From Escherichia phage UE-S1, in sequence record ON568341.1: a DNA stretch of 64,000 nt; one strand, 5' to 3'. Position numbers and translations under genes: made by a program. The notes under the pieces were generated by a model that made no database searches, was not told the DNA's origin, and saw nothing but the letters and a program-made list of their open reading frames with translations. The first letter of the stretch is position 1; every line of letters begins with the position of its first letter. Below, piece by piece: positions 36,001 through 63,095 of the stretch.

Positions 36001-39000
36001 ACCAGTTATAAGAGAATTCTGACTCCACATCACAAAATCTTTAGCAATAGTGTTCCAATCTTGTTGAACGCCGCCATCATTTACATCTTCGAAGATCCAT
36101 CCATGTTCTTTAAGATACTCCCCATAACCACAAATAAAAGTATAGACTTCTTGGTAACTGTTAAGAACTGTTCCATATTCAATAGAAGCCTCAGACTTCC
36201 ATTCATTGTAATGGACAACATTACGGTTTTCTAATTTAAGAGTTACTTTTCGACCATTTTTCACTGGGAGTTTATATTTAAATTTAGCCCCAACCAAGTC
36301 ATATCCATCTATTTGATATGCACTACCATTCCAGGTAATTTTGATAGCACTCATCTGTTCATCACGAATATTATTTGAACGTACAAGTCCAATTGTTTGG
36401 TTTTCTTGTGAAATCAACCCAAATGATTTAGCATTGAATGTTAGTTGGTCTGCTTTAGTAAATCCTCCAATTTTATGTCCTACATTTACATTAGAAGAAC
36501 GAACAACATCACCATATTTTGTAGTAATGTTTTTATTTTGATACATCAAATAATCACTAACGAACATTTGATACCCAATTGTTCTTGTGTTATTTTCACC
36601 ATGAACAGTGGTTTTTTTATCAAAATTGATACGATTACGGGTATCCCCATAAAGAAATTGTTCACCACCAGTGAATATTTCTTTTAAATTATCATTTCGG
36701 GTGTCCCAAAAATAGTTTGCGAATTGTGCTGGTTTAGCTTTATACAATAGCATCATTTGGTCATATGCAAATAATGTGGTATTCATGTAAGTAAATTCCA
36801 TGTCACCCATATCACCATATGCCCAAGGTTCGGCTCTATGATTTAAAGAACCAGATACTAAACCTAAAATCTCAGGGGCAATATACTCAACAACACAAAT
36901 ATCCACTCCAGAGGATGTTTTATTTCCAGTTTTTGTAATTTTAAATGGTTGTACACCAAATCTTCTATATTTGTCATACTGACCACGGCGGTCACCAGAT
37001 AAAATTGTACCAGTACTACTATCCCCGATAGTATCATTAATATTCCACAGACCACTAGGAACTAAATCACCTTGTTCATCAGTGACAAGTGCTTCATATA
37101 CATATACAACATCACCATCACGTTCACCAACTTGAACAGCAGTTGGTTCATATTCTTGATTCCACCAAGTAGGACGTTGTGTAAATCCAAACATTTCCCA
37201 TGGATGTGTTGCTGGACGATATGTACCATATTGGTCAGTATAGATTGCACGCCACGAACCACGAGCAGGAATTTCAGTACTTTTACCATTGACCATATAA
37301 TAGGTTCCAGTGTAGTTCCATGTTCTCCAGTTACTGGGATCATAATCATGTGTACTATTACTAATACCATTGGATGCTGTAAAGTTAATATAACCACGCA
37401 ATAAAAGTGTTTGTTTCTCTTCCGCACTATATTCAGTTTTTGTAAAATATGGTGTAGGGAAAAGGTCATCACTATTCAATACTGGAACATAATCAACATC
37501 TTTGAATTTATTATCAATACTATTAAAAATTCTATTTTCTAACTCATAAACAACATCATCCATTTTATCAACACCATTAATTACACGGTATGCTTTTGAA
37601 ATAATACCAGTATGACTAATGTTATAAAAGCTTGGTTTACTACCAGCAGTTAGAAATGTAGCTTTCTCAGGAACATATGCTTGTAAAATACCCAAAAACT
37701 GTGGTGTTGGTGGTATAAATGCACGAACAAGTCCAGATGTGCTTCCTACATTATCATAATAGAACGGGAATGAGCTGTCGCGTCCCATATTGATAGTAGT
37801 TAAAATAGAATCAACAATATTTGCTGCACTATTTTGTAAAAAGTTAGATGGATTTTCATTATACATACGAAGCATTTGAGTATTAAATTTATTAATGAAT
37901 CGGAAATATTCAGATTGCATAAACATAGTTGCTTCAAATAAATCAATATCTTCATTTGCGGTATGAGCCATCAATGGAAGCATAGAAGCTTCATTTTGAA
38001 TAATTTTAGTTCCTACTCCATTATTCACTAATCCCTTAGCTAAACGTTCTTCATAATCGTTGAAGTCATCAGCATAACCACTAGTGATATTCTGTTGAAT
38101 AATATCCTGAAAATGTAGAGTATAGTCTCCTTGATTAATATATATAATATTGGAGTTATATGGGTTATTTTGTAAGTTAATCGGAACTTCATATGCACCT
38201 AATTCTTTATCAGGTGTTACGGTTCTACTATAAGTTCTAATTTGAATAACAGAATCATCATCTAAATCTACCGAACTATCAAGTGTGATGCTTTGTACTT
38301 GGCCTTTTGATACATTCTTTGTATATTTTGATACATTAACACCATCGACATTAACTTCAATAATATCAGAATCATTATCTAAAACTTTTTGAGCTAATTC
38401 AAACGTATGATCATATTTTAAAATCTGAATACCATCACCACTAATCTGATGCCAGTCCAAATAAGTTTCACGTTCTGCTTTATAGTACTGATATGTTCTA
38501 TCAACTTCAATAACATATGCATACATACCATCAACAGGTTCTTTGAACACTTCCATGTCATATACAGTACTGAATACTCGATACATGTCAGTGCGTTGGA
38601 CCTGTGGAGTTTGTTTTACATATTGTTTAGAGTATTCGTTTGAACGAACCCAATCAGTTTTTAGATTCATTTTATTATTTTCATCAATAATGTTATAATA
38701 ATACAATCCACCAATTTCAACTTCAACACCAAGATGATCATATGTATAACGTTGTGATTGCAAAAAGTTTTCATAGGTGTAATAGTTATAATCACCAAGT
38801 TCAATGTTATACCCATATACACTATCAGTAGCGTAATTATAATTTATTTTAAAACCAAATAATTGTGAACCTTTAAAGTTACTGGATGGGTATGTTGTAC
38901 TATTATCTAGTTTAATCCCATTGCGATCATAAAGTTGGAATTTTGGGAAGACGTTAACACTAGGTTTAGACTGTGCACGAACCCACAAATTACCATTCCA

Positions 39001-40023
39001 AAACATAGAACTATTACCATATTCATTACCTTTGGTAATTAAAACAACATCTCCATCCTGTGGTTCACCACTTGGACGAGATTCTGATTCTTCATCGGGG
39101 TCTAGTGCTAAGCCATAAACACGTGTACCATCTTGCATTTTTTTAACATATACTTTATAAATCCTATTGTTTTCACCATCGTTACCAATACTAGTGAATA
39201 GAATACGCATACCATCTTGTGGAATAATACCATCAATACGAATACCACTATTGACATCTTTTTGGATAATATCTTCAGGTTTAATATTATCAGAAAAAAG
39301 TTCAACTGTACCACGGAATTTCGTACCGTAGTTAATTAGCTCAATGTTTTTATTATATTCAATAATTGGTGCACGAGCACGAATAAAACGAGCATCTTGC
39401 ATTAATTCTTCGGTCAAGATTGAACCATCTTCCAGTGTCTCACCTAAAGTATACCAAAAGTTTTGTAATGACCAAGTATTACCATTAAGTGCACCACGTT
39501 CCATGACAATGTAGTCAGGAGTAGTAATATTATAAGAGTTTTTTGTATCCCAAAGATATGAGCTAAAATTATTCATTTTATTTGGGTTAATTGCAGGTGT
39601 CCATGCGTAAAACTTACCGTTAAATAAGCGACTTTCATTATCGGTTAGTGCTCCATAATGACTCATGTACCCAACCAGATCATCATAAAATTGAATTGAA
39701 CGAATAGTCGAATCATCATTTTTAGAGACGTAAGCAGTGGACAACTGATATAGTTGTCGAGCAACAGTACTTTCGTGTAAAAAGATATTACCAGCAGCGG
39801 CTGGAGAACCCATATCACCAATATAACCGTCAACTAATTCGTTTTCAGCCGGATTAAACCATTGTTGAATAACATCATCACTGACTTTCTGAATATCTTC
39901 TAAGCCTTGCATCCACTCAGGCAATCTTTTAATAAAAAGCTTTTTCTGTACTGCTTCAGCCATCTGTGTAGGTTGAAACTTAAAATTATTAGTCATTTTC
40001 TGGACTCCATATAATTCGTTCAT
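30028..40023 (-). CDS. Giant (3331-aa) virion protein at the position of a gp7 / gpI-like baseplate wedge component
   Basis: Uninterrupted ~10-kb ORF; sits directly downstream of the gp6/J-like gene in the conserved spike, W, J, I order. Confidence 0.65.
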   Translation of the reverse strand: MNELYGVQKMTNNFKFQPTQMAEAVQKKLFIKRLPEWMQGLEDIQKVSDDVIQQWFNPAENELVDGYIGDMGSPAAAGNIFLHESTVARQLYQLSTAYVSKNDDSTIRSIQFYDDLVGYMSHYGALTDNESRLFNGKFYAWTPAINPNKMNNFSSYLWDTKNSYNITTPDYIVMERGALNGNTWSLQNFWYTLGETLEDGSILTEELMQDARFIRARAPIIEYNKNIELINYGTKFRGTVELFSDNIKPEDIIQKDVNSGIRIDGIIPQDGMRILFTSIGNDGENNRIYKVYVKKMQDGTRVYGLALDPDEESESRPSGEPQDGDVVLITKGNEYGNSSMFWNGNLWVRAQSKPSVNVFPKFQLYDRNGIKLDNSTTYPSSNFKGSQLFGFKINYNYATDSVYGYNIELGDYNYYTYENFLQSQRYTYDHLGVEVEIGGLYYYNIIDENNKMNLKTDWVRSNEYSKQYVKQTPQVQRTDMYRVFSTVYDMEVFKEPVDGMYAYVIEVDRTYQYYKAERETYLDWHQISGDGIQILKYDHTFELAQKVLDNDSDIIEVNVDGVNVSKYTKNVSKGQVQSITLDSSVDLDDDSVIQIRTYSRTVTPDKELGAYEVPINLQNNPYNSNIIYINQGDYTLHFQDIIQQNITSGYADDFNDYEERLAKGLVNNGVGTKIIQNEASMLPLMAHTANEDIDLFEATMFMQSEYFRFINKFNTQMLRMYNENPSNFLQNSAANIVDSILTTINMGRDSSFPFYYDNVGSTSGLVRAFIPPTPQFLGILQAYVPEKATFLTAGSKPSFYNISHTGIISKAYRVINGVDKMDDVVYELENRIFNSIDNKFKDVDYVPVLNSDDLFPTPYFTKTEYSAEEKQTLLLRGYINFTASNGISNSTHDYDPSNWRTWNYTGTYYMVNGKSTEIPARGSWRAIYTDQYGTYRPATHPWEMFGFTQRPTWWNQEYEPTAVQVGERDGDVVYVYEALVTDEQGDLVPSGLWNINDTIGDSSTGTILSGDRRGQYDKYRRFGVQPFKITKTGNKTSSGVDICVVEYIAPEILGLVSGSLNHRAEPWAYGDMGDMEFTYMNTTLFAYDQMMLLYKAKPAQFANYFWDTRNDNLKEIFTGGEQFLYGDTRNRINFDKKTTVHGENNTRTIGYQMFVSDYLMYQNKNITTKYGDVVRSSNVNVGHKIGGFTKADQLTFNAKSFGLISQENQTIGLVRSNNIRDEQMSAIKITWNGSAYQIDGYDLVGAKFKYKLPVKNGRKVTLKLENRNVVHYNEWKSEASIEYGTVLNSYQEVYTFICGYGEYLKEHGWIFEDVNDGGVQQDWNTIAKDFVMWSQNSLITGEFISCTPSAANAKFGSDFGSVQSITQNNGGVWSLLDDNNQGIRQYEIETSRIGNIFTVRTLDSNKRIALLRLSLCSYEHAVIFDDKTIFGDYIYQPTYGSIQELIKMYGYITGSWTGRLQAPGFIILESGTIPSFETLVTDFQHYYDNESPVSDVQLQELSSHLIGYQSRDYLQRMISSDVSRVDFYKGFIHDKGTNQVLERVLRVSKSYDTDEYKALQEWAFKIGTYGNIDGKKNLQFKLINDQFKQQPQMVSFDENATSNGTGNNVVYFGDQGKDPRWITRPNGKFSFPMRSGRSEHIQLPDIGPVTLDEVSYTTKDFSTAYNDRISYVNGKGENPESVWMFKDGNGLWNIFELVDTNVQMVSITPIENTDIYAEQFCKVTLTDKIPLEDGDYYYFVDETNFMPDTLTVESQYYTAGEDPKVMVVPFDTSINIEFTDPATRPRLYRYVSRFTSADKRQEYIDKKYSFKAPQSTLFERPTTYDERTNITALYLNVYDPINGVIPGAAMQNVTYTSPIDPAQYNSNGELVQAWGADKVGQVWWNTSTAFYLDYTRAIYDADGNVDIDATNEYKRYNWGRLLPHSTIDVLEWVCSPVEPYNWDKYCKDVAKKNKNNNMYLPSGTALEDNYSTFLEYDSSTDSYVTKYYFWVRDTIYVPPLHTRTKSCTDIARIIKDPSQLNIPWFAPINENSFILSNMQFKVNDDTSVLTISYYMDSTEVVKHDQYQLCKEGESYNFNPLIWDSMWNSLIGQETTKSGSVINLLYPDVDNGIGSNKTWFQNVIDARRNFVESANNYYRSQNITTNSVVMEDVFNVKTTEVNPNEVSFRVLSYNNELVIAVEQDKFKENDAVILSSSGYLPNPLSTSAVYFIHFDENGYIQLMNSPANTGNVVTITLENKGEGQHKMIKQSDYVESLGTSLDMTQYWSYADWYDVGYDSKTAYIQETSLEEANTKNYQVGDIIRVTDSENIWTLYIKAQSRDSIYWKAIGRQHSTIELNDLIYADYSIHNENGSLSNREINVRKALALLKHSFDLHQSEIVFDMVKYVHVEQSVVDWVFKTSYIYIVGLEQSLVQNYSNDNLINQIVEYFEEVKPYRTKIRSQIEQKTSDDDLIKGLCNDLDPNGYIFVDGSWIKTEKDIWDYEYAQYNEVTKKWEQVGALPSDFISPHRRFQEIDIIMHYDNIQCKPNEDLANINDLINVNKKYQTNEKDSVNNYELQRYIYSFPEYNENSFDLVNAYLMQIYYPELDVTLGTAHGVNKWYKEHADDLEATDKFTATLERVYKESTHNEMFTDLRQYVQYNTLANRLKLYKDISDDKIHDAVGCGFSGLTYNDNPNTRLPLGFSSSNDYNYGYFEISKELYEKYISLIKDEHPDASDYDIKVKLEVEYGVYVYRYDEVGGDTRFYSDAVHVLAGMRGLFDKDATDKYEKAEEILSKTPIDIYAITMMPRKYVYLNVNGVYQSIPDNRSIDDFMEDYFITNGEMVELAEINLDDLPQDTNNPMYSNYQYILKSISEAKYFNDMNAFDNLALESQTSTIKWEVKDDEVDPYIIDISDINPSGRDVGHIRFTVDGYGFDNVSLVQLRNNSRYKTEGMAIINPYKHTEAIVSIPSYAKIENDINKKSAPFDEKYFYRVRSINSLTEAEIVDNDLSDGDKVMIFTPDGEDFIRYQNHKWETILRVSKIKHNTTPILFTVRTTGKETIELVDTSGAVLRYDNITLAQQNEPVQPLALNIVRVRTFSDSEFVKDDIKLYEQNRNYTIDVINYDVFYDTTLNGGKYNDGMTPDDVDVWIVSNEIFNDDGITIDNGYNLPITGAGVLSELVRTKMPDCLEINVIEYDANVIKPFKNNEGIWVYGYPMVDDIYIGVVGGTITNITTISEENTTYVAQPISVSPYNVRNNVLVSSSANKNDIISIGYEKVEVRNANNLLRGVMYSAEHDFKLNTTYSFNGINLGSYDKFKHYTQNSYIIDLSMYTNSLRVSGNDIKNILLVK

Positions 40024-40078: not shown

Positions 40079-43000
40079 TTAAGAACCAATATTTATATTG
40101 CTTTTAGCTAATGAGTTAACTATTTGAACATTTTCTACTGATGCCGTACTCAAAAATATTTGGTCCGAACGTGATGGAATTTCAAATAGTGACCCAAATT
40201 TTGAATTTGGATTTTGTGCAACAATAACAATTGTACTAATATGTCTCCCCAATTGGGAATGTATATAAGTACACAAATCAGTGTAATAGAAACTTTCACC
40301 AAAATCCCAATTATCAACATTAAAATATTCATTTGTTAATGCAATAACATTTTGACGAATTTCATCGTCACTCATAGTACTATTTGGTAATTTAACAACT
40401 TTAAAATCAGCTTTATAGTCTTCAGCAGCACTATTGCCAAACAATGGTAGGTACTCTGCACTATGCCAAATAATACTGTCACTGATGACAATTTTTTGCT
40501 CAACATCTTTGAACATATTTTTCAATTCAACTGATGTAGGTGGTTTTGGGATACTTCCAACTGCATTATTTTTCAACCACACATCAACTTCGGTTTTATA
40601 CGAGTTAGTTAGAACATACATATCAATTAAGTTTGTTCTACTTGGATCAATGCGATTATCGTCAGGTGCATAATGTTTCCAATGGAAGTCAATACTTGTA
40701 CGAGCATTTGTTTTGACTGTGTATTGTGCAGTAACATCTTTATAACCATAGTAATCCAACTTCTGATTCTCATCAGAATTAGTACCCATGTTGTTAATTG
40801 TACGATAAAATGCGAGTTCTGGTGTAACAGTTATGGTGTCATCTGAATATGTCAAATTACTAATTAATTGACCCAAACGATCATTGTTGTTACCAACGGT
40901 TTGTTCGATGAAATAATATTTACCATCATATTTAAAACACACTAAGAATCCAGAACCTTTACTGTACAATCCACTCAATGAGTTAGAACGAATTGCATTA
41001 TTTCGTACAAATTCAGTTCTTTTATATGTATTAGGTTCAGCTAATGCTTGTTCCATCGTATAAGACCAAGATGAATCTAGAAACGTGAATGTATCATTTG
41101 GTAAAGATAGAACTGAAATAGTAAAATCATTATTTTCTTTGAATATCAAAATACCACCATATTTCAATGCATCAGTACCTGACCATTCTGGAACAATTTC
41201 TTTAAATTGGTTTGGTTCCAATGGTATACCATTACTATCTACTTTTCTAGATGTGACAATAATACGAGAGCCATCAAGATATCCATTTTCTTGCTGTATT
41301 GTATCATAAATTTGAAAATCAATATTACTCGTCAGTCCAGAATTGTTAGTACTGGTGGTGTTCGAAGATAAAATTTCAATCTTATCGCTTTGAACAGTGC
41401 CAGTACTAATATCAGTTATTTTTTTGGATGAAACAAAGTAAAATTTCACTTTATCCCCACCAACGAATATATATTCAATACCATTAGCGTCAAATTCCCA
41501 AGTTTCTGCTGTATATTTTACATTTATAACAACCAAAACTTCATGACCATTATACATAATAGTATCATCATTCGTACTTACTTCTACCGGAACCCATGCA
41601 GTTGTTTCTTTGTCATGCACAATGACAAAATCAGTTTTCTTATCCAACATTGCAGAAATAGATTGAACTTCAACGGAATCAAACCTAGTTCTATATGGTA
41701 ATATATAATCAATTGCTTGCATTCTACTTGGTACGGATGTACTTAATACATAAAACCCATTATCTAATACACTAACAATACTTGCCCATACTGTAGTGGT
41801 AGAGTTAGAAAATTTAATCAAAGTACCCACCTGATACGAGCCATATACAGTCCCAGATGAACCCAAAATTCTACCATATGTATTTGTAGTATAATTTGAA
41901 TTATATACAGGCGTCCATGATTGTTGGATTTCAATGCCAATCGTATTGGAAGGGTAAGCTTGATAGCGTTGTATTACCGCATTTTCACCAATCAATGGTT
42001 GAATATTATCAATAACAATGCTGGCATTAGTTTTTGTTGTTGGTAGTAATAGTGACCTATTAAATTTAGTATTTTCTTGATATAATGCCCCGTCATCACT
42101 AAACACATCAGTGTTTTGGTATTTTCCAGTAGGATCATTGATGTCAATAAATCTAGACTGACCACTATAAATTCTATTAATAGCTTTCGACTTAAGCACT
42201 GTATTCCCTAAACTAAGGGGTGCTATATTATAATCTTCACCATTAACAAAGCGGTTTTGTGTATAGTACATTTGTGGTGCACGTGCTTTAATCTGCTCAA
42301 TTGTCTCAGCACTTTGTGCACGATCTGATTCATATTGTAATGAAAAACGTACATCCAACGTACTAGATTCATAACTTGATTGTGTTTTAGTTCGATATGT
42401 ATACTTTACACTTTTATTTTGAATTTCTGATGTTTTAATGTTATACGTTTTACCATTACTGACGCGATACCACACGCGAAAAGTTCCACGCGGCACAACA
42501 CCACTTCTAGAATCTGGATATTTAATTGTTATTTGGTCTTTGTCACGTGTTGAAACAGCAAAAATTGTTTTTAATTGACGGTTAACCGTATTATATGCAA
42601 TACTTTCCATAGATGGTACTTTTGTCCATTTCGCACGCACAATACCATCTTCATTAATTTCTTGAACCCAAACATCAGTTTCGTTTATATTATCAACGTT
42701 TACATCTTGTATTCTATTTTCTTCACGAATATTATATTGATAATCTTGATATGTCAACGTCCCTTGTATAAAATATACAAAAAAACCAGTATTTGGTGAA
42801 CTGAATCCATTACCATCATTTTGATAGACAATATATTTTTGTTCTTGCGGTTCTGGGTGACGTTCCTCAACACCAACGGATGTAATGTCAGGGTTTACCA
42901 CTTCAAATGTCATAGATTCACCATTTACTGTTGCAACAAATGGTATACTTGGTGCAGTCATTGGAATTGTATTCATCCTATACAATTGTCGAGATACACC

Positions 43001-43540
43001 ATTAACATCAATACGTTTAACTGGGTTACCAAATTGATTAGTACTAACAAATGAGCTATTCATAACAAGAATGAAGTTTTCATACCAATTTGCATCCATC
43101 GGGTCATTCCAACGAATAATTTTATCTTTTAGCGATTCATTGAAACTATTACGAACATCTTGGTTAGTTTTAATTTCAGTTAATTTAGCAACTGCACGAC
43201 CAGGATAAGAACGGCGTGGTGCATAAGAAATCATTTTAGCTAGTTTTAGAACTGATGCACGACGTGTTGCAGTATCTAAAAAGTTTTCACGTGTGTTTAA
43301 ATCCATACGAAATGCCAAGTTCTGTCCTAGCATAGAAATTGTATCCAGAATAAAAATGAATTGGTCATTTTCAATCCAGTCATTGAATGAATCAGGATAC
43401 GTTTGACGCAAATAATCAATCATACTCTGGCGAATAGTATCAAAATCATATGCAGTAAGATTGATTTTATAAAAACTTTCATAAACTTGAGTCCAATCTT
43501 CACCACTATATAAATTTGATTGCCTTTTTTGTTGTGACAT
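40079..43540 (-). CDS. Baseplate wedge protein, gp6 / Baseplate_J-like, enlarged
   Basis: 1153 aa; N-terminus resembles the Baseplate_J family start; lies next to the gp25-like gene. Confidence 0.55.
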   Translation of the reverse strand: MSQQKRQSNLYSGEDWTQVYESFYKINLTAYDFDTIRQSMIDYLRQTYPDSFNDWIENDQFIFILDTISMLGQNLAFRMDLNTRENFLDTATRRASVLKLAKMISYAPRRSYPGRAVAKLTEIKTNQDVRNSFNESLKDKIIRWNDPMDANWYENFILVMNSSFVSTNQFGNPVKRIDVNGVSRQLYRMNTIPMTAPSIPFVATVNGESMTFEVVNPDITSVGVEERHPEPQEQKYIVYQNDGNGFSSPNTGFFVYFIQGTLTYQDYQYNIREENRIQDVNVDNINETDVWVQEINEDGIVRAKWTKVPSMESIAYNTVNRQLKTIFAVSTRDKDQITIKYPDSRSGVVPRGTFRVWYRVSNGKTYNIKTSEIQNKSVKYTYRTKTQSSYESSTLDVRFSLQYESDRAQSAETIEQIKARAPQMYYTQNRFVNGEDYNIAPLSLGNTVLKSKAINRIYSGQSRFIDINDPTGKYQNTDVFSDDGALYQENTKFNRSLLLPTTKTNASIVIDNIQPLIGENAVIQRYQAYPSNTIGIEIQQSWTPVYNSNYTTNTYGRILGSSGTVYGSYQVGTLIKFSNSTTTVWASIVSVLDNGFYVLSTSVPSRMQAIDYILPYRTRFDSVEVQSISAMLDKKTDFVIVHDKETTAWVPVEVSTNDDTIMYNGHEVLVVINVKYTAETWEFDANGIEYIFVGGDKVKFYFVSSKKITDISTGTVQSDKIEILSSNTTSTNNSGLTSNIDFQIYDTIQQENGYLDGSRIIVTSRKVDSNGIPLEPNQFKEIVPEWSGTDALKYGGILIFKENNDFTISVLSLPNDTFTFLDSSWSYTMEQALAEPNTYKRTEFVRNNAIRSNSLSGLYSKGSGFLVCFKYDGKYYFIEQTVGNNNDRLGQLISNLTYSDDTITVTPELAFYRTINNMGTNSDENQKLDYYGYKDVTAQYTVKTNARTSIDFHWKHYAPDDNRIDPSRTNLIDMYVLTNSYKTEVDVWLKNNAVGSIPKPPTSVELKNMFKDVEQKIVISDSIIWHSAEYLPLFGNSAAEDYKADFKVVKLPNSTMSDDEIRQNVIALTNEYFNVDNWDFGESFYYTDLCTYIHSQLGRHISTIVIVAQNPNSKFGSLFEIPSRSDQIFLSTASVENVQIVNSLAKSNINIGS

Positions 43541-43604
43541 AATTTATTCCTTTAAATCAGTAAAGTACTAGTTCAGTACTGGGAATTATATAGAAATATT
43601 TATT

Positions 43605-43637
43605 CAAAAAGAAAAGCACTCAGAAGAGTGCTTTTTC
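43605..43637 (-). terminator. Rho-independent terminator
   Basis: AGCACTC-agaa-GAGTGCT hairpin flanked by A/T tracts. Confidence 0.55.
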
Positions 43638-43641
43638 TTAG

Positions 43642-44037
43642 TTATAAAGACGATACAGAATATGTTGCCATTCTATTATTACTTCTTGCATCAAAGACTA
43701 TAGAAAGTTCTTCTACCGTATTCAATACAACGTATTGTAATACGATATTCATTTGGTATCCATATTCAATTCTTGAAATTTGTATGTTTTTAAGATTTAA
43801 GCGTGGATCTAAGCTAATAATCCTACGTGCATCTGCTTCTAAAAGGTTAATAGTATTATATCCTTCCAATTCAAACAACAAATCCCATGCAATAAACCCA
43901 TAGTCTGCATCGAATGCTCTTTCGCCTTTTTTTGTATTAAAATGATTCATCAAATCCTGACGAACCAATTCATTATCATACAACGTTTCAGTTCTACCCA
44001 CAACTGGTGTAGAGAAACCTTTGAAAACAACTGCCAT
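43642..44037 (-). CDS. Baseplate wedge protein, gp25 / GPW-like
   Basis: 131 aa; GxxxRxFDADYGFxxWDLLFE pattern typical of the gp25/W family; sits between the spike-lysozyme and gp6-like genes. Confidence 0.6.
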   Translation of the reverse strand: MAVVFKGFSTPVVGRTETLYDNELVRQDLMNHFNTKKGERAFDADYGFIAWDLLFELEGYNTINLLEADARRIISLDPRLNLKNIQISRIEYGYQMNIVLQYVVLNTVEELSIVFDARSNNRMATYSVSSL

Positions 44038-44050
44038 TGTCTATTTCCTT

Positions 44051-44539
44051 TTATACGGATTCGACGATACGTGCCATCTTTTCCGCTCTAGAAGTGGTTT
44101 GTTTATACCATGTACTATCACGCAATTCTTTACCAGCAGTTTTATAATCAGCTTTACCTAATGCGGACATTGCTTTTTTGAATTTCAAAACTTTGGTTTT
44201 ACCCATTTGGAATACCATCATCCACAATACACGTTGTACCTGTACTGGTGCTGTCATACCAAACTGTTCATAAATGGATTTTGCGTCATTGTACGCAGTT
44301 TGAGCATCTTTAATAAGAAGTTGGTCTGCTTGTTCTTCAGTTAAACCATTTTTGAAGTTCTCGTTGGGAAGAACTAAATGACCATAACCAATAGTATCAA
44401 GTCCGAGGCTATCTTTATATACCCAAAACTTATCATTTTTAAAATATCCAAGTTTTTTTTGATAAGAAATTGTACCTTCAAACTCTTTAATTTCTTTAAA
44501 AAACTGCTCATCTGTATTTTTAATTTCCCATTTACTCAT
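44051..44539 (-). CDS. Glycoside hydrolase family 24 lysozyme (T4 lysozyme-like), free-standing
   Basis: T4-lysozyme-like catalytic triad positions (E in KEFEG, D in KDSLG, T in DTIGYGH) and MVFQMG motif. Confidence 0.85.
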   Translation of the reverse strand: MSKWEIKNTDEQFFKEIKEFEGTISYQKKLGYFKNDKFWVYKDSLGLDTIGYGHLVLPNENFKNGLTEEQADQLLIKDAQTAYNDAKSIYEQFGMTAPVQVQRVLWMMVFQMGKTKVLKFKKAMSALGKADYKTAGKELRDSTWYKQTTSRAEKMARIVESV

Positions 44540-44555
44540 AAAGACATCCTCATTT

Positions 44556-44563
44556 TATTTATA
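44556..44563 (-). promoter_or_regulatory. T4 late-promoter-like TATAAATA box
   Basis: Plus-strand TATTTATA is the reverse complement of TATAAATA, 17 nt upstream of the lysozyme start. Confidence 0.35.
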
Positions 44564-44575
44564 GTACTGAAATAT

Positions 44576-47239
44576 TTATTGACATGCCTCCAAACGTCGA
44601 GCCATTAACTCAGCACGGCGTGTCGTTTGGCGATACCAAGCCGAATTACGGATTTGTGCTGCTGCTTGTTTATAATTTCCTTTCGCTAATTCAGATAACA
44701 TTGTTTTAAATTTAAGAACTCCACCTTTGCCCATTTGAAATACCATTTGACATAGAACTTGCTGTGCCATATAAGGAGTTTTCATGTTATATGATGCATA
44801 AATTGATTTAGCATCATAAATTGCTTTACTACTATCACGAACAAGCATATCATTTGCTTGTTGTTCAGTTATACCAGAAGAAAAGTTTTCGCCATTCACG
44901 ATTAAATGACCGTAACCAATAGTTGGGTAGCCACGACTATCCAAATAACGCCAGAATTTACCATTTCGATAATACCCTTTTGCTTGTTGATATTGCATAG
45001 TACCCTCATATTCCTTTAATTCGGAAATAAATTGAGAATCACCTGGGACAATTTTCCAATCTATTGCAGTTTTATCTACATTACCGACATTATATGTTGG
45101 TTGTACAACTGGTGTAGATGATACACCACTTCTCTGTGTTCTTCTTTTACGAGGTACATGTCGTGAGCCACGCTGTGAATAACCAGTACCAATTGTTTTA
45201 ATTTTGGTAGTAACGACCAATTCATCACTATCAACGGATGGTTGTACTACTGCTTGCGGTGAAGATTGATTTGTTGCTTGACCTGCAATCAATGTTTTAT
45301 TAGCTGCATCTGCACCAATACCAGTTTGTGATGCATAAAATAATCCTGGGTCAACTGAACCACTAAAGCCGAGGACGTTAGCTGACGTTACACGTATTTC
45401 AAATTGCATAACACCATTTGCTTTACCAATGACCTGTCCCTTTTGAACTACATCCTTGTTTAGTAAATTCGTTTGAATATTATAAAATATAGATTTATAA
45501 CCAGATTTATGTTGAATCAAAATCCCACCATTAGTAATTACAACAACACCACCATCTGGTGCAACAACATCTCCTTTACATTGTATTTCCCATCCAGAAC
45601 GGTCAGTCTTTCCTCCATTTTGTGTTGGAATGCCTTTTCCCCAATAGCCGTATTGACGAATGGTCCCACTACACGGCATATACATATGCAAACCTTCATA
45701 TGTAATGCTATACCCAGTCATTCCAGTATCAGATACCATTAAATCTTGTGTTTGAACTTGTTCGGTTTCGGGTGTATAGTTCACAAACTGAATAGCTTCA
45801 GTTTCTTGAGCTTCAGGAATTTCTGGTGTAACATCATTTGCAGGCTGTGGCTGAACAGGGGATTCACTTGAAATCTTCCCCCCACCTTGTCTTGGTGGTT
45901 CAACATAACTACCATGGTTTTTCGCATCAACCCATGAAACAATGTCATGAATGTGTTCATTAAGACCAGCAGATGGTGTTCTGAAATTTGGTGCAGTAAA
46001 TTCAGCAGTACCGCTATTACCACCACTATTAACTGTTAATGTTTGACCTCCACCACTAACAATTGCTGAAGATGAACCAATTAAGTTTGCAGATGTAGAA
46101 GCAGAAATAGACGCATTTGAACCAGCAGTAATATCAGTACTGCTACCACTTTGCATACGTAAGGACGCAGCAGTGACCAGTCGAAGATCAGCACCGGAAT
46201 TAACCACAACTTGTCCACCAACTTTTGCATCAAGAGTTCCAATTAGATCTAATTTAGTATTGGCTCCTACGCGTGCATTAAAATCTTGACCCGTTTCAAT
46301 ATTATATGAACGACCAGCAGTGATGTTAATATCTTGCCCTGCACGAATATTGATATTCTTATCACAGTGCATGTCAATATCCCCTTCACCAGTAAATTTT
46401 ATACGGGCGGTCCCATCACGATTAATTAAAAGTACATCCCCCGTTGCTTCTGATAATAAAAGTTGTGCACCACTACGGGTTTTTATTACAACTCCTTCAT
46501 TTTTACGAGAACCAACACGGGTGTCGTTTACTGGGTTATTGAATTGTGTATCTTGATATCCATCTGGGTCTTGATCCCATGTGGGTGCAGTTAATTCCTC
46601 TTCGGTATAGCCATCATCAATGATGAAACTATTTCCACGTGGGGATGACATCCCATATACAGTACTCGTTGTTTGGCGAGTACTACTTCGGTTAGCAAGG
46701 CCAGCTTCTTCATCATACAAAAGGTTTTGCTTTTTAAGACCAGCAATAATTGGAACATTTGCATATTTGTCTTGCATATCAGTAGTGAGTGTGTTACGAT
46801 CATAGTCAGTAACAGGAAGAGGCATATCTGTTCCGCTATAATTACTAACATCTGTTGCCATACCAGGGACCATAGTATTCATGCGATGGTCATATACACA
46901 ACCAATCCAATACGCTTGAAATGTACGAGCCTGTGCGAAAATCACAACAACAGTGCACCCAACATCAGGCGGCACAGCCCAGAATCCATAACCTTTAGGA
47001 TACTGTCCATAAGCATCTGCACTTGGAATACCTGGTGTTTTACCAGCAAAAGGAGACATATAAGATGCCTCAATCCATGATTCTTTTGAATTTTTATCGC
47101 TTTGTGAACCTTGTATCCAAACTTTTAACTTTCCAGATTTAGTTGGATCTCTATTATCCATAACTGTTGCTAATTGTGGATAAGCTGGGTCAAAACGACC
47201 CAACTGTTGTTGTGCATACTTTTTACTTGTATCTGCCAT
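44576..47239 (-). CDS. Baseplate central spike protein (gp5-like) with M23/LytM-like beta-barrel region and C-terminal GH24 lysozyme domain
   Basis: C-terminal ~160 aa paralogous to the free lysozyme (EYEG, LDSRG, PTIGYGH, MVFQMG); preceding region matches an M23-like pattern (I-H-G-Y-S-Y ... GQVIGKANG). Confidence 0.75.
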   Translation of the reverse strand: MADTSKKYAQQQLGRFDPAYPQLATVMDNRDPTKSGKLKVWIQGSQSDKNSKESWIEASYMSPFAGKTPGIPSADAYGQYPKGYGFWAVPPDVGCTVVVIFAQARTFQAYWIGCVYDHRMNTMVPGMATDVSNYSGTDMPLPVTDYDRNTLTTDMQDKYANVPIIAGLKKQNLLYDEEAGLANRSSTRQTTSTVYGMSSPRGNSFIIDDGYTEEELTAPTWDQDPDGYQDTQFNNPVNDTRVGSRKNEGVVIKTRSGAQLLLSEATGDVLLINRDGTARIKFTGEGDIDMHCDKNINIRAGQDINITAGRSYNIETGQDFNARVGANTKLDLIGTLDAKVGGQVVVNSGADLRLVTAASLRMQSGSSTDITAGSNASISASTSANLIGSSSAIVSGGGQTLTVNSGGNSGTAEFTAPNFRTPSAGLNEHIHDIVSWVDAKNHGSYVEPPRQGGGKISSESPVQPQPANDVTPEIPEAQETEAIQFVNYTPETEQVQTQDLMVSDTGMTGYSITYEGLHMYMPCSGTIRQYGYWGKGIPTQNGGKTDRSGWEIQCKGDVVAPDGGVVVITNGGILIQHKSGYKSIFYNIQTNLLNKDVVQKGQVIGKANGVMQFEIRVTSANVLGFSGSVDPGLFYASQTGIGADAANKTLIAGQATNQSSPQAVVQPSVDSDELVVTTKIKTIGTGYSQRGSRHVPRKRRTQRSGVSSTPVVQPTYNVGNVDKTAIDWKIVPGDSQFISELKEYEGTMQYQQAKGYYRNGKFWRYLDSRGYPTIGYGHLIVNGENFSSGITEQQANDMLVRDSSKAIYDAKSIYASYNMKTPYMAQQVLCQMVFQMGKGGVLKFKTMLSELAKGNYKQAAAQIRNSAWYRQTTRRAELMARRLEACQ

Positions 47240-47252
47240 ATTTTTTTATTCC

Positions 47253-49502
47253 TTAGTCAACTATACTATCGTGACGTTTAAGTGCACGGATTACAATTGC
47301 AGCTTGAATTTGTTGTGTAAAAGAACCACCTGCACCAAAATCATGAACGATTTTATTAACACGATAAATTGTTTGATTAAACGTAGTTGGTGTATTAATA
47401 TCCAATACACCAGTGTTATCATTAATTGACACTACTGGTTGTAATTTTAATAATAGATATGCTTCAGATGTTATGTAGTTTGCTACGTGATAATCATCTG
47501 GATTAATTTCCATATCCTCACCATTAATTACTTGCTCTAGATATTGTAAGTACGAGTAATCACTCCATCCTAACCAATATGGATCACCAACTACACGCAT
47601 ATCAAGCTTGCACAAAAAAGGTCTATTGTAATAGTTGTCACGTATTTTACGTCTATCCATTTCATATGTACTACTGTTATCGTTTAGAGAAGCCGATAAC
47701 GTCGTTTCATTATTGGTTGCTTCAGTAGGCATTGTGAATACTTCACCATAACGATGTCCAATCCCATCAGTTCCTTCATCGTTTTCTTCATATGTAGTGA
47801 CATAATCTTCAATATATTGTGGTAACACATTTACTTGATAATTATTATAACGGTCTTGTTCTTCAGCGTTCCCGACCTGCATTTGGTTTTTAGCCAACGT
47901 ATCAATTTCTGACAATAAATCTTGTTGGTCTTTTGTTAACATTCCACCCATATCACGTGTTACACGCAAATCACTTGTTTTTGCCCATGCATCTGGTATA
48001 CTATTATATTGCACACCTTGTATATTCAATTCTTGTGAGTTATGTGTACCAGAATGGTTTGCCACGTCTTGAATTGGCCCTGGGTTACGGGTAGTGGCTA
48101 CGAAAAATTGTTGGTCAAATTTTAAATCCAAATCAATTATCTCACTATTAAGACCACTAAACTGATAATTATAAGTTTTTATATTCAATTTTGGTTTTTG
48201 ATCGATAGGATCTACATATTTTTCCGCATTCTCAAAGAAATATTCAAATGTGAAATTTTCTGGTTGTAAATCAGATTCATGTACAATATCACCTATCTTA
48301 AATTTAACTATATAAAAAATAACTTTATAAACTGAAGTGTTACGATAATTATCAAAACCAATATATTGTTTTATTGGTATAATATTAACAAATTGTCGTA
48401 CACTGGTGCTCTCATCTGCTTGTACTGTACAAGTATCAATAACATCATCAATAATTCTGGATATAGGAGTACTTGGGTTCCATGAAAAGTTTTTAGAACC
48501 TTGGGTTCCACTTTTAGTTGTTCCAGCTTCTGCCATTTGTTTAGAATCATAATTTATAAACAAATCTTGTAAATCAGGAGCAACTTTAAATTCAAAAAAT
48601 TTGCCATCAGATAATTCACCAAATTTATATCTAAGATACCCATATTGTTGGTCAGCCATCTGATTTAATTTATCTTCCAAATCAAAACAGAAATCACCAA
48701 AGTTTTCAGCCGTACAATTAAATGGTTCTTTAAGTGTCCATTCAATATTATCAACCAATGCTGCTCTATTATGAACTAAACTCATAGAATACATCATAGT
48801 ACTTCCACTTTGTGATGCACTAGCCGTTATACTATTAATTTTAACTGACCATCTTCGTGTTGTTTCAGGAATAATTTCAGGGATTCCATTCTTATTAAAA
48901 CCTATGAACTTTAATTCCAATATCAAAGGTAAGTCCATGAATTTATGAAATCTAAGTTTATTACTTAACGATATTAGTTCATCATATAGACTCATACTAT
49001 TATTTTCAGACATATTAAGAACAGCCGTATTGAAACAATAGTTAGTTGTCATTCCAGGTGTGGATGGTCCAGCTTGCGTCATTTGTACACTTGTGATATT
49101 ATATTTTCCACTAACACCACTTTCAGATATAACATGACGCTGCACGTCGGCATCTGGATAAAGCCAAAAATTTTTAAAATCATCCTTATCCAACGCAAAC
49201 AGACAAAAATGCCAAGTTGGATTATCATATTTTAATAGTTTGTTGTTGTATGGTATCACAAATTGACTTAAATCTAAATCTTCATAAACTTGTCCCATAC
49301 CAGCACTCTGTGATGGCAATGACTCAACATTACTAACATTTGCTTTATAGTTATTTTTTGTAATAGCTTTCACGTCATTTTGTAATGTATTAGCGGTAGC
49401 TTTCAAACTATCCAATGAATTAGATGCAGTTGTTTTTGTCTTCTTATTAATACTTGAAATATCATTTTGAAAATTATCAACTGTACTTCGTAAATCTGCC
49501 AT
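47253..49502 (-). CDS. Hypothetical baseplate or tail structural protein
   Basis: 749-aa ORF immediately upstream of the spike gene in the same operon. Confidence 0.5.
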   Translation of the reverse strand: MADLRSTVDNFQNDISSINKKTKTTASNSLDSLKATANTLQNDVKAITKNNYKANVSNVESLPSQSAGMGQVYEDLDLSQFVIPYNNKLLKYDNPTWHFCLFALDKDDFKNFWLYPDADVQRHVISESGVSGKYNITSVQMTQAGPSTPGMTTNYCFNTAVLNMSENNSMSLYDELISLSNKLRFHKFMDLPLILELKFIGFNKNGIPEIIPETTRRWSVKINSITASASQSGSTMMYSMSLVHNRAALVDNIEWTLKEPFNCTAENFGDFCFDLEDKLNQMADQQYGYLRYKFGELSDGKFFEFKVAPDLQDLFINYDSKQMAEAGTTKSGTQGSKNFSWNPSTPISRIIDDVIDTCTVQADESTSVRQFVNIIPIKQYIGFDNYRNTSVYKVIFYIVKFKIGDIVHESDLQPENFTFEYFFENAEKYVDPIDQKPKLNIKTYNYQFSGLNSEIIDLDLKFDQQFFVATTRNPGPIQDVANHSGTHNSQELNIQGVQYNSIPDAWAKTSDLRVTRDMGGMLTKDQQDLLSEIDTLAKNQMQVGNAEEQDRYNNYQVNVLPQYIEDYVTTYEENDEGTDGIGHRYGEVFTMPTEATNNETTLSASLNDNSSTYEMDRRKIRDNYYNRPFLCKLDMRVVGDPYWLGWSDYSYLQYLEQVINGEDMEINPDDYHVANYITSEAYLLLKLQPVVSINDNTGVLDINTPTTFNQTIYRVNKIVHDFGAGGSFTQQIQAAIVIRALKRHDSIVD

Positions 49503-49513
49503 GTGTTACTCCA

Positions 49514-49828
49514 TTAGCCTATGTTTCGAGTACCATTAAGATAGTTTTGTACTCTTTGATTTGCTGGTATTCTAATTGTTACTCCACTTTTAAAATTATA
49601 TATAGGATCTTCTCCTAATATATCTGGATTTAACAATGCAAAAATATAATATAGACGTTCATTGCCATACATCTCGTAGGCTAAACGCCAGGGTTGATAT
49701 TCATACTTCAATGGGATCTCATAAAAATCATCAGTATCAGCAGGAACTATATCTCGTGGTAAATTATAACCAAGATACCAAGATTGTTTCACCTTAGCAT
49801 AAGGTGAGTATTGACTATAGTTGGACAT
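49514..49828 (-). CDS. Small LysM-like domain protein (tail protein X / gp53-like)
   Basis: YEIPLKYEYQPWRLAYEMYGNERLYYIFALLNPDIL...GVTIRIP fits a LysM-like pattern. Confidence 0.4.
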   Translation of the reverse strand: MSNYSQYSPYAKVKQSWYLGYNLPRDIVPADTDDFYEIPLKYEYQPWRLAYEMYGNERLYYIFALLNPDILGEDPIYNFKSGVTIRIPANQRVQNYLNGTRNIG

Positions 49829-50577
49829 TAAATAAATCCTCCTTTGCGTAATAGTTCACCTCGTTTAAATGCATTGAGGTTAAACGTTTTAGTCATATAA
49901 TCAGATGTCGGTTGTTCTTCAAGTTGTAACATAACTGATATTTTTTGTGGAACCCAAACTTCATCTTGTGGATTCATATATCCAGTACTTCTAAGTTGTT
50001 CGAAGAATTTTCTACTATCCATATCGGATAAATTAAAAGTACTGTCACTACTATTCAAAGGAACTTGAATATAAGAAACATCATTAGGATATGTAAAATT
50101 ATAAGATTTTAAAATTACCGGAATATCATTATATGTGTAACGACCATATCCACTTAAAAGTAAAATTGGTGGTGGTGCACCAGCAATTGCCAATTCGGGG
50201 TTATTAGCAGATGCTGCTTGTCTACCAAAATCCATCAATGAAACCGAACGTATAAAATGAACACATGCCAATGCATACATGGCTTCTGCTGCCGTATTAG
50301 CATAAAATTCACCCTGAATAGTGAAAACCGTATTGGTGGTGTTTTTGTAATTATTATAGTTACTATTGGTATGTATAGGTGACTGTGTTTCATACTGAAT
50401 TGACCTTTGTTCAGTAATTATTGGTGTTACAGTCCAAACCAACCCATTAGTTGGACGCAGAAACGAAAGTAGTGTTGGTTCGGAGCTATCCCCGAAATCA
50501 CCATATACATAGTTAGCACCTGCGGCTTTAGGTCGTAATCGAATTCTACGATCAATCATCTTTTGATTCTCCATCAT
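49828..50577 (-). CDS. Hypothetical protein (start moved to the first in-frame ATG; the track start at 50616 is a GTG)
   Basis: ORF with ATGATGG at 50577-50572; stop overlaps the downstream start. Confidence 0.45.
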   Translation of the reverse strand: MMENQKMIDRRIRLRPKAAGANYVYGDFGDSSEPTLLSFLRPTNGLVWTVTPIITEQRSIQYETQSPIHTNSNYNNYKNTTNTVFTIQGEFYANTAAEAMYALACVHFIRSVSLMDFGRQAASANNPELAIAGAPPPILLLSGYGRYTYNDIPVILKSYNFTYPNDVSYIQVPLNSSDSTFNLSDMDSRKFFEQLRSTGYMNPQDEVWVPQKISVMLQLEEQPTSDYMTKTFNLNAFKRGELLRKGGFI

Positions 50578-50604
50578 AAGGGAACATTTGATGTATTTAT
50601 ACGT

Positions 50605-50632
50605 GGGACAAAACACTTTTTGGTGCTATAAT
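50605..50632 (+). promoter_or_regulatory. Sigma70-like promoter: GGGACA, 16-nt spacer, TGcTATAAT
   Basis: Extended -10 TGCTATAAT at 50624-50632, about 58 nt upstream of the gp55-like ATG. Confidence 0.4.
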
Positions 50633-55214: not shown

Positions 55215-55305
55215 AATTCCTCACCAAACTATTTGTCATCACAATATTTATAGATTAGTTATTTGCAATATTTTAAGTACTTAATGAATATTTTATAAAA
55301 ATAGT

Positions 55306-56066: not shown

Positions 56067-56276
56067 TTAGTGCTTCTCGTTTTGTTTTTTAATTTTTTTA
56101 TTAAAAGACTTAACTAATAAGTCTCTATCTATTAATGGCATATTAAGAAGTGTTCCGTAATCAATATTATCCATATACACAGAACACTCCATTAGTGCAT
56201 TTTTGATTTCTGACTTATTCAGTTCTATCTCCTTCAGTACTTCTTGTATTTCTTCAGGAGATGACTGGAGAAGCAT
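56067..56276 (-). CDS. Small hypothetical protein
   Basis: 69-aa ORF whose start overlaps the upstream stop by 1 nt. Confidence 0.45.
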   Translation of the reverse strand: MLLQSSPEEIQEVLKEIELNKSEIKNALMECSVYMDNIDYGTLLNMPLIDRDLLVKSFNKKIKKQNEKH

Positions 56277-57112
56277 TACTCGAAAAAATGACTAGGATCA
56301 TATTTTAGTCCATCAATTTCCCATTGATGATTACATCCATCACACTCAACTTCCATACTATGCGATACTCCAATTTCAAGTACTTCATCCATTTTTTCAC
56401 GAATTAGTTTAAGAACTCCTTTTGATTGTTGTCCAAGCCACTCATTAATGAATTCTTTTTCAACTACTTCATCACCATCTGGAGTGATGATTTTTGCAAT
56501 AACTCCACCAATCATATCAAAGTTTAGTTGTGCCATATTTTCAAATACTTCAGAAAATATTTTTACTTTTTCGTCTTGTTCAATCTCAGCAGTTTCTAGA
56601 AACTTAGTTTTCTGCTGCTCACTGAACATACGCTCAGCAAACGATGAATATTCTTTCCATGTTAGTGGTCTAAACTCTAAACGTAGTCCATTATCTAAAT
56701 CAATAGATGGGATTTCTTCGAATGCTTGTGCAGTTTCAAGAAGATATGATAGATTACGTTCAAAACGACCTTCTTTTTCACATTCAGGACATACAGCGTT
56801 AATATCATATGTTTCTTCTTTAGATGCAACTTTAATAGCAATAAGAAGCATTTCAACGTCATTTACATATAACTCATCAGCATCAATAACATTAGGAACA
56901 CAGTTTTCAATGACACGTGATACTGCATCGCCGTTTAGTAACATATCTGGTGTATTGAGTGTCATTTCATCACGTGCACTACGTGCACAAACGCCACATT
57001 TGACACCTTTTGGACCTAAAACTCCGTCTTTATAAGGAATAATGCCGTTAGTAACTAATTTTGTACTGATCTCTTCAATTTTAGTGTACTTAGCAAGTGG
57101 ATTCATAGCCAT
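56276..57112 (-). CDS. Cys-cluster protein (putative zinc-binding), possibly a baseplate hub or assembly component
   Basis: 278 aa with CGVC, CPEC and CDGC pairs; divergent from the head-module operon. Confidence 0.5.
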   Translation of the reverse strand: MAMNPLAKYTKIEEISTKLVTNGIIPYKDGVLGPKGVKCGVCARSARDEMTLNTPDMLLNGDAVSRVIENCVPNVIDADELYVNDVEMLLIAIKVASKEETYDINAVCPECEKEGRFERNLSYLLETAQAFEEIPSIDLDNGLRLEFRPLTWKEYSSFAERMFSEQQKTKFLETAEIEQDEKVKIFSEVFENMAQLNFDMIGGVIAKIITPDGDEVVEKEFINEWLGQQSKGVLKLIREKMDEVLEIGVSHSMEVECDGCNHQWEIDGLKYDPSHFFE

Positions 57113-57203: not shown

Positions 57204-57211
57204 TATAAATA
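57204..57211 (+). promoter_or_regulatory. T4 late-promoter-like TATAAATA box
   Basis: Exact TATAAATA 33 nt upstream of the 57244 start. Confidence 0.4.
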
Positions 57212-63087: not shown

Positions 63088-63095
63088 TATAAATA
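63088..63095 (+). promoter_or_regulatory. T4 late-promoter-like TATAAATA box
   Basis: Exact TATAAATA 48 nt upstream of the 63143 start. Confidence 0.35.

Follow-up and report, generated by a model that had tools for sequence, protein, structure and literature searches.

A short gp53-like LysM protein in the inner baseplate module of Escherichia phage UE-S1

Which protein is encoded by a small open reading frame (ORF) upstream of the central spike gene of Escherichia phage UE-S1, and does it tie the surrounding genes to the conserved core of contractile-tail baseplates? In a 64,000-nucleotide stretch of this phage (sequence record ON568341.1; hereafter the window), the original prediction, made from the letters alone, had placed at 49514-49828 a product of 104 amino acids (aa) with a LysM-like pattern, of the type seen in P2 gpX or T4 gp53, and had proposed that it would help to anchor the local gene order to the baseplate core. 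We consider it very likely that this product, here called the LysM protein, is a minimal baseplate 'glue' with a LysM fold, shorter than its homologues T4 gp53 and P1 gp26, whose job it does.

An ATG-to-stop ORF of 104 aa is called exactly at 49514-49828, on the minus strand, a detail that the original prediction had left out. Its product has a computed mass of 12.37 kDa. The gene ends with the stop codon at 49514-49516 and starts with an ATG at 49826-49828 (minus strand), which overlaps by 1 nucleotide (nt) with the TAA of the preceding gene for a 243-aa protein; such an overlap is typical of translational coupling with that gene. A Shine-Dalgarno sequence, AAGGAGG, can be read from the sequence at 49838..49844 (minus strand), 9 nt 5' of the ATG. 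Over the surrounding 4 kb, the DNA shares 90.8% identity with 121Q, PBECO4, phAPEC6 and related Escherichia phages, members of the genus Asteriusvirus with genomes of ~350 kb; within the gene itself, identity to 121Q is 94%. The 19 nt differences from 121Q amount to 17 synonymous codons and one non-synonymous codon, and 16 of the 19 fall in third codon positions; comparison with the more distant fEgEco12 gave 32 synonymous and 9 non-synonymous codons. These codon comparisons show purifying selection on the gene.

The LysM protein is 99% identical to 121Q gp589 (YP_009102176), which has the same length and the same neighbours and differs in a single residue (S16 here, T in 121Q). This orthologue is named 'structural protein' in GenBank and 'baseplate wedge subunit' in RefSeq. 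Further orthologues are phAPEC6 gp239 and CBB_242 (Asteriusvirus/Rak2-like phages), the latter listed as a T4 gp53 homologue in the CBB genome paper, and NCBI/UniRef members of the protein cluster (46 close homologues) are named 'baseplate wedge protein 53'. A tblastn search with the protein returned 87 phage records, jumbo myophages without exception (Asteriusvirus, RaK2/K64-1, GAP32, CBB, Eneladusvirus, XbC2, a Vibrio phage, Atu_ph07, SCTP-2 and PA5oct/Paride). We are dealing with the orthologue of an already annotated protein, from a family with an established LysM fold and an established role in the baseplate; since it already carries the annotation of a short T4 gp53 relative in 121Q-like jumbo coliphage, the finding is correct but ordinary.

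The sole Pfam match of the LysM protein was Phage_gp53 (PF11246), which scored 22.3 bits (E=1.2e-4), narrowly over the curated threshold of 21 bits; the match spans residues 35-79 and profile positions 47-86 of 200, and 88 of 128 diverse family members match this profile individually. The PHROG family phrog_7145 ('baseplate wedge subunit') matches from end to end (E=4e-45), and a search of NCBIfam gave nothing useful. A profile search run exhaustively over 1.84 billion cluster representatives revealed 258 relatives at E<=1e-3, nearly all of 90-110 aa; among the best 150 of the 258 the median length is 99 aa, and no protein in this set is as long as gp53.

For searches of the PDB, a narrow profile of the close family (A1) and a broad profile of 128 diverse members (A2) were used. 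The A2 profile matched P1 gp26 (E=3.1e-7) from the first strand through the C-terminal helix, which is the whole LysM region, as well as the gp53 homologue of Klebsiella phage KP1, a wedge subunit (E=7.7e-6), and T4 gp53 (E=2.5e-5). Below significance, the profile also matched gp16 of cyanophage A-1(L) and a LysM protein of a Streptomyces contractile injection system (CIS). Alignment of A2 with T4 gp53 by hhalign gave a probability of 93.6% (E=2e-7) and paired residues 41-84 with gp53 residues 51-91. In the PDB searches, significance for gp53 was reached only with the broader profile: with A1 the gp53 match was non-significant (E about 1) and a match to CBM74 was spurious, and the single sequence retrieved only chance matches to acetyl-CoA carboxylase. 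On the alignment evidence, homology to gp53 is established for the LysM helices, and the C-terminal half of gp53 is absent. The architecture of the T4 gp53 family, a LysM-like domain plus a C-terminal domain in ~200 residues, is not that of the 104-aa protein. As the protein resembles gp53 in sequence and fold and lacks its full-length architecture, 'short gp53-like LysM baseplate protein' is an accurate label.

An AlphaFold2 model of the LysM protein, built from a 47-sequence alignment, recovered the LysM fold that had been proposed from the sequence pattern. Its mean predicted local distance difference test (pLDDT) score is 78.8, with values of 86-92 for residues 31-90, and its elements are a strand (34-37), two helices (46-54 and 57-66), a second strand (84-87) and a third helix (90-98). 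In the model, the core (residues 34-88; 49565..49729, minus strand) adopts the LysM beta-alpha-alpha-beta topology and can be superimposed on solved LysM domains. The core is followed by the C-terminal helix (90-98) and tail (residues 89-104; 49517..49564, minus strand), and the profile alignment with P1 gp26 runs through this helix. In the broad family N67 never varies, and conservation reaches at least 90% at P46, Y54, D74, G82 and P88. By eye, the sequence follows a LysM-like pattern (Y-x-I ... P-x-x-L-A-x-x-x-Y-G ... L-Y-x-I ... N ... G-x-x-I-x-I-P), a likeness that is visual only, as the Pfam LysM family (PF01476) gave no match to the protein even at E<=1. The classical LysM turn G-D-T before helix 1 reads (R/Q)-P-(D/W) across the family.

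The core is preceded by an N-terminal arm (residues 1-33; 49730..49828, minus strand) that is highly conserved and modelled with pLDDT values of 57-69. Within the A1 alignment its residues S8 and P9 do not vary, and Y4, Y10, K12, Q15, Y18, L19, Y21 and P24 each reach 90% conservation or more; S8, Y10 and L19 remain the majority residues in the broad family. High conservation together with low pLDDT is as expected for an arm that becomes ordered only against a partner. On this modelling evidence, the arm is probably an extended interface to partner proteins that has no fixed structure by itself; an analogy is offered by A-1(L) gp16, where the wedge is recruited by an N-terminal tail.

The best Foldseek match of the model was a P1 baseplate chain (9vzk_d, E=4.7e-4). 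The fold comparison gave figures of 7.6 for phiCD508, 6.7 for the Streptomyces CIS, 6.4 for AlgoCIS, 6.1 for A-1(L) gp16, 5.8 for P1 gp26 (88 residues aligned), 5.2 for phi812, 5.0 for PVC Pvc7, 4.8 for the pyocin R2 'glue' PA0627, 4.5 each for Milano and Mu N, 4.4 for P2 gpX and 4.3 for T4 gp53. Like the proteins of the P2 gpX family, it is a small free-standing tail protein with a LysM fold. Pfam Phage_tail_X (PF05489) did not match it at E<=1, and P2 gpX was not among the PDB matches of the A2 profile. Of the two types named in the original prediction, that of gp53, with P1 gp26 beside it, holds by sequence; the likeness to gpX is one of fold only.

Orthologues of the LysM protein are virion components. 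In phAPEC6, mass spectrometry (MS) of the virion detected all four of the adjacent products gp238 (27.5 kDa), gp239 (12.37 kDa), gp240 (85.4 kDa) and gp241 (95.9 kDa, lysozyme), and the mass of gp239 is identical to that computed for the LysM protein. In the virion of phage CBB, CBB_242 was found with 3 peptides and 39% coverage.

The gene order also anchors the protein to the conserved baseplate core, as had been proposed. In the direction of transcription, all on one strand, the genes for the LysM protein, hub, spike, lysozyme, gp25 and gp6 follow each other, each neighbour with the expected fold or family. LysM-hub-spike-gp25-gp6 is the core order of simple contractile baseplates, into which one additional lysozyme gene is inserted between spike and gp25. 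The LysM gene thus sits in an operon-like baseplate module upstream of a gp5-type spike. It is upstream of the central spike gene as originally stated but not adjacent to it: the spike is two genes downstream and the 749-aa hub gene lies between. The block is conserved to Atu_ph07 and Paride/PA5oct and comprises a divergent late sigma factor gene, a structural protein, a short gp53, a structural protein of 660-750 aa and a gp5-like protein; in Agrobacterium phage Atu_ph07 and Pseudomonas phage Paride the second of these structural proteins has 660 aa.

How the protein would act can be proposed from the solved baseplates of its relatives in T4, P1, A-1(L), pyocin R2 and PVC. In A-1(L), six gp16 subunits join the trimeric hub to the hexameric wedge, and around the LysM domain of gp16 lie the wedge bundle, two sheath initiators and one tube initiator. 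In P1, six copies of gp26 hold the wedge triplex to the hub and touch the gp25 homologue PmgA. T4 gp53 binds after gp6 and is required for the binding of gp25, and its own binding triggers the association of six wedges. By analogy, the inner top of the baseplate would hold six copies of the LysM protein. Each LysM domain would be clamped among the N-terminal helical core bundle of gp6/gp7-like wedge proteins, the gp25-like sheath initiator, the tube initiator and the trimeric hub, with the gp25-like and gp6-like proteins as expected binding partners. The extended arm would contact a neighbouring component. In this arrangement the protein would link the six-fold wedge ring to the three-fold hub and, like T4 gp53, would license wedge-wedge association and gp25 binding, letting tube and sheath start. 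The LysM fold would then serve as a protein-protein adaptor and not as a peptidoglycan binder.

Several points weigh against this assignment. The similarity to gp53 is confined to ~40 residues, the two LysM helices, and single-sequence E-values are weak. Because ~100 C-terminal residues of gp53 are missing here, not all gp53 contacts can be reproduced. The N-terminal arm is modelled at low confidence, and the MS support for phAPEC6 gp239 is a single peptide. Literature searches found no solved baseplate of an Asteriusvirus or Rak2-like phage (phAPEC6 is available at 25 A only, phiKp24 as capsid and tail only), so that copy number, position and partners are given here by homology only.

Other explanations of the locus fare less well. 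The predominance of synonymous changes, the large family with its conserved length, the confident fold prediction and the MS detection of orthologues in virions exclude a chance frame or a non-structural small protein, an explanation that the shortness of the ORF, the AT-rich genome and the name 'hypothetical protein' in several GenBank records might have suggested and to which we give practically no weight. A LysM domain could also have kept its classical activity and bind peptidoglycan, for example after baseplate rearrangement; it would then fasten the tail to the cell wall or set its orientation there, beside the two muralytic domains of the spike. This appears very unlikely to us, since the domain is buried among protein partners in every solved baseplate and is described there as glue or connector, the Pfam LysM family is not matched, the G-D-T turn is replaced throughout the family, and the strongest conservation takes in the arm, which is not part of the LysM domain.

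A third explanation concerns the coupled gene upstream. The 104-aa and 243-aa proteins may represent a split form of the fusion of a tube initiator with a C-terminal LysM domain known from extracellular CIS (Afp7/Pvc7 type), and the LysM protein would then be a detachable tube-initiator domain rather than a wedge subunit. The gene for the 243-aa protein (49828..50559, minus strand; phrog_12050, virion structural protein) was called mechanically as an ORF of 262 aa from a GTG (49828-50616), but all homologues have ~243 aa, which places the true start at the ATG at 50559. In phAPEC6, its counterpart gp238 was detected in the virion. The PHROG profile of its family has 507 positions and the Atu_ph07 version 468 aa, which indicates that some relatives carry an N-terminal extension of ~260 residues. 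A tube fold of this protein is unsupported. The profile found no sequence matches in the PDB, hhalign gave no match to T4 gp48 or gp54, none of the 41 family members had an informative Pfam or PHROG assignment, and a local tblastn search returned no match. The gp48-like tail-tube label that one GenBank record (fEgEco12) gives to a homologue was not confirmed by any sequence link to gp48 or gp54. The LysM protein, in turn, is closest by sequence to the free-standing gp53 and P1 gp26, and we regard a split fusion as improbable. It would be compatible with a role as baseplate glue and differs from it mainly in evolutionary framing. If it were true, the Rak2/121Q/PA5oct/Atu_ph07 jumbo phages would be an intermediate between simple CIS baseplates and T4 with its separate gp48 and gp54 and its long gp53, and for a wedge-hub adaptor a 33-residue arm with a bare LysM domain would be the minimum, even where the baseplate is very large.

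The LysM gene is conserved, looks expressed and is part of a late structural operon. The T4-type late-promoter consensus TATAAATA occurs at 50594..50601 (minus strand), 34 nt 5' of the ATG of the 243-aa gene, and is likely to mark the operon start. Because TATAAATA is not over-represented in the window (7 copies found by pattern search, 10 expected), the late-promoter assignment is drawn from position alone. Six of the seven copies are found immediately 5' of a gene start or between genes. Copies are located at 40090-40097, 44556-44563, 50594-50601 and 55245-55252 on the minus strand and at 57204-57211 and 63088-63095 on the plus strand; the one at 44556-44563 belongs to the gene for a 162-aa lysozyme. 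The CBB paper describes the same T4-type late motif in Rak2-like phages. A gene for a gp55-like late sigma factor, at ~50.7-51.5 kb, is the divergent neighbour of the operon, and the placement of TATAAATA fits late transcription by such a factor. A scan for sigma-70 promoters performed no better than on shuffled sequences.

Directly downstream of the LysM gene, the 749-aa hub gene (47253..49502, minus strand) encodes a protein with the fold of gp27, Mu gp44 and gpD. It is called only 'virion structural protein' in public records, and sequence methods gave no identification; the fold search alone identified the hub. A weak tblastn match of T4 gp27 to a 278-aa ORF at 56276-57112 (minus strand) was considered as a second hub and rejected, because this ORF encodes a baseplate hub protein of the T4 gp26 type (Pfam T4_baseplate, E=1e-23). 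The gp26-type ORF lies ~6 kb from the hub/spike operon, beyond genes for recombination nucleases.

The 887-aa central spike (44576..47239, minus strand) combines an OB fold, a VgrG-like beta-helix, a weak M23 peptidase match and a C-terminal GH24 lysozyme (Pfam Phage_base_V, DUF2345, Phage_lysozyme and, below threshold, Peptidase_M23; phrog_13211). Just after it lies the gene for the free-standing GH24 lysozyme of 162 aa (44051-44539, minus strand). This lysozyme shows 53% identity to the spike's own C-terminal lysozyme domain (residues 728-886), and the two are a tandem duplication of a muralytic module.

The gp25-like sheath initiator (131 aa; 43642..44037, minus strand; Pfam GPW_gp25, E=8.6e-9) corresponds to 121Q gp585, and the gp6-like wedge protein (1153 aa; 40079..43540, minus strand; phrog_10646 and phrog_219, baseplate wedge subunit) to 121Q gp583, 'T4 gp6-like'. 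In 121Q a gene for an HNH homing endonuclease, gp584, which carries the annotation group I intron-associated, separates gp25 from gp6; here the gap (43540-43642) is just 100 nt long and holds a bidirectional hairpin terminator at 43611-43636. Directly downstream of the gp6-like gene, a 3331-aa ORF (30028-40023, minus strand) corresponds to 121Q gp582, 'virion structural protein', and by its position could include the gp7-type wedge function.

These results are of practical use for annotation: with the LysM protein as a reliable landmark, the position of the inner baseplate module in this jumbo phage is fixed. With this landmark, the 749-aa 'virion structural protein' reads as a gp27/gpD-type hub, which is a modest gain. 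A second modest gain is that a large clade of jumbo phages, with 258 cluster representatives, uses a LysM-only gp53 of ~100 residues, which is consistent with the LysM adaptor, and not the C-terminal half of gp53, being the conserved element. The module keeps the universal order of LysM, hub, spike, gp25 and gp6, though its proteins reach up to twice the size of those of T4. The current understanding of contractile tails is unchanged.

Among the known systems, P2 gpX (PDB: 2ltf) and the pyocin R2 'glue' PA0627 (PDB: 6u5b_6) have no detectable sequence relation to the LysM protein; both are essentially bare LysM domains of 55-71 residues that lack the conserved 33-residue N-terminal arm. In the 151-155-aa gp16 of cyanophage A-1(L) (PDB: 8kea_J), which has no significant sequence similarity to the LysM protein, the C-terminal tail is longer and is inserted into the hub or paired with the tube initiator. 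The 125-aa baseplate protein P1 gp26 (PDB: 9ay5_S, 9vzk_d), with ~16-20% identity, is the solved counterpart of the short arm-LysM-helix form, although the P1 baseplate is much smaller and the partners of gp26 (PmgA, BplA, gp16 and gp6) differ in size from those encoded here. T4 gp53 (PDB: 5iv5, 5hx2_F; 196 aa), likewise a protein of the wedge/hub interface, has homologous LysM helices, whereas its C-terminal half has no counterpart in the LysM protein. In T4, gene 53 stands directly before gene 5 and gp27 is encoded elsewhere, whereas in UE-S1 the hub gene lies between; in both phages the gene is located upstream of gp5 in the module.
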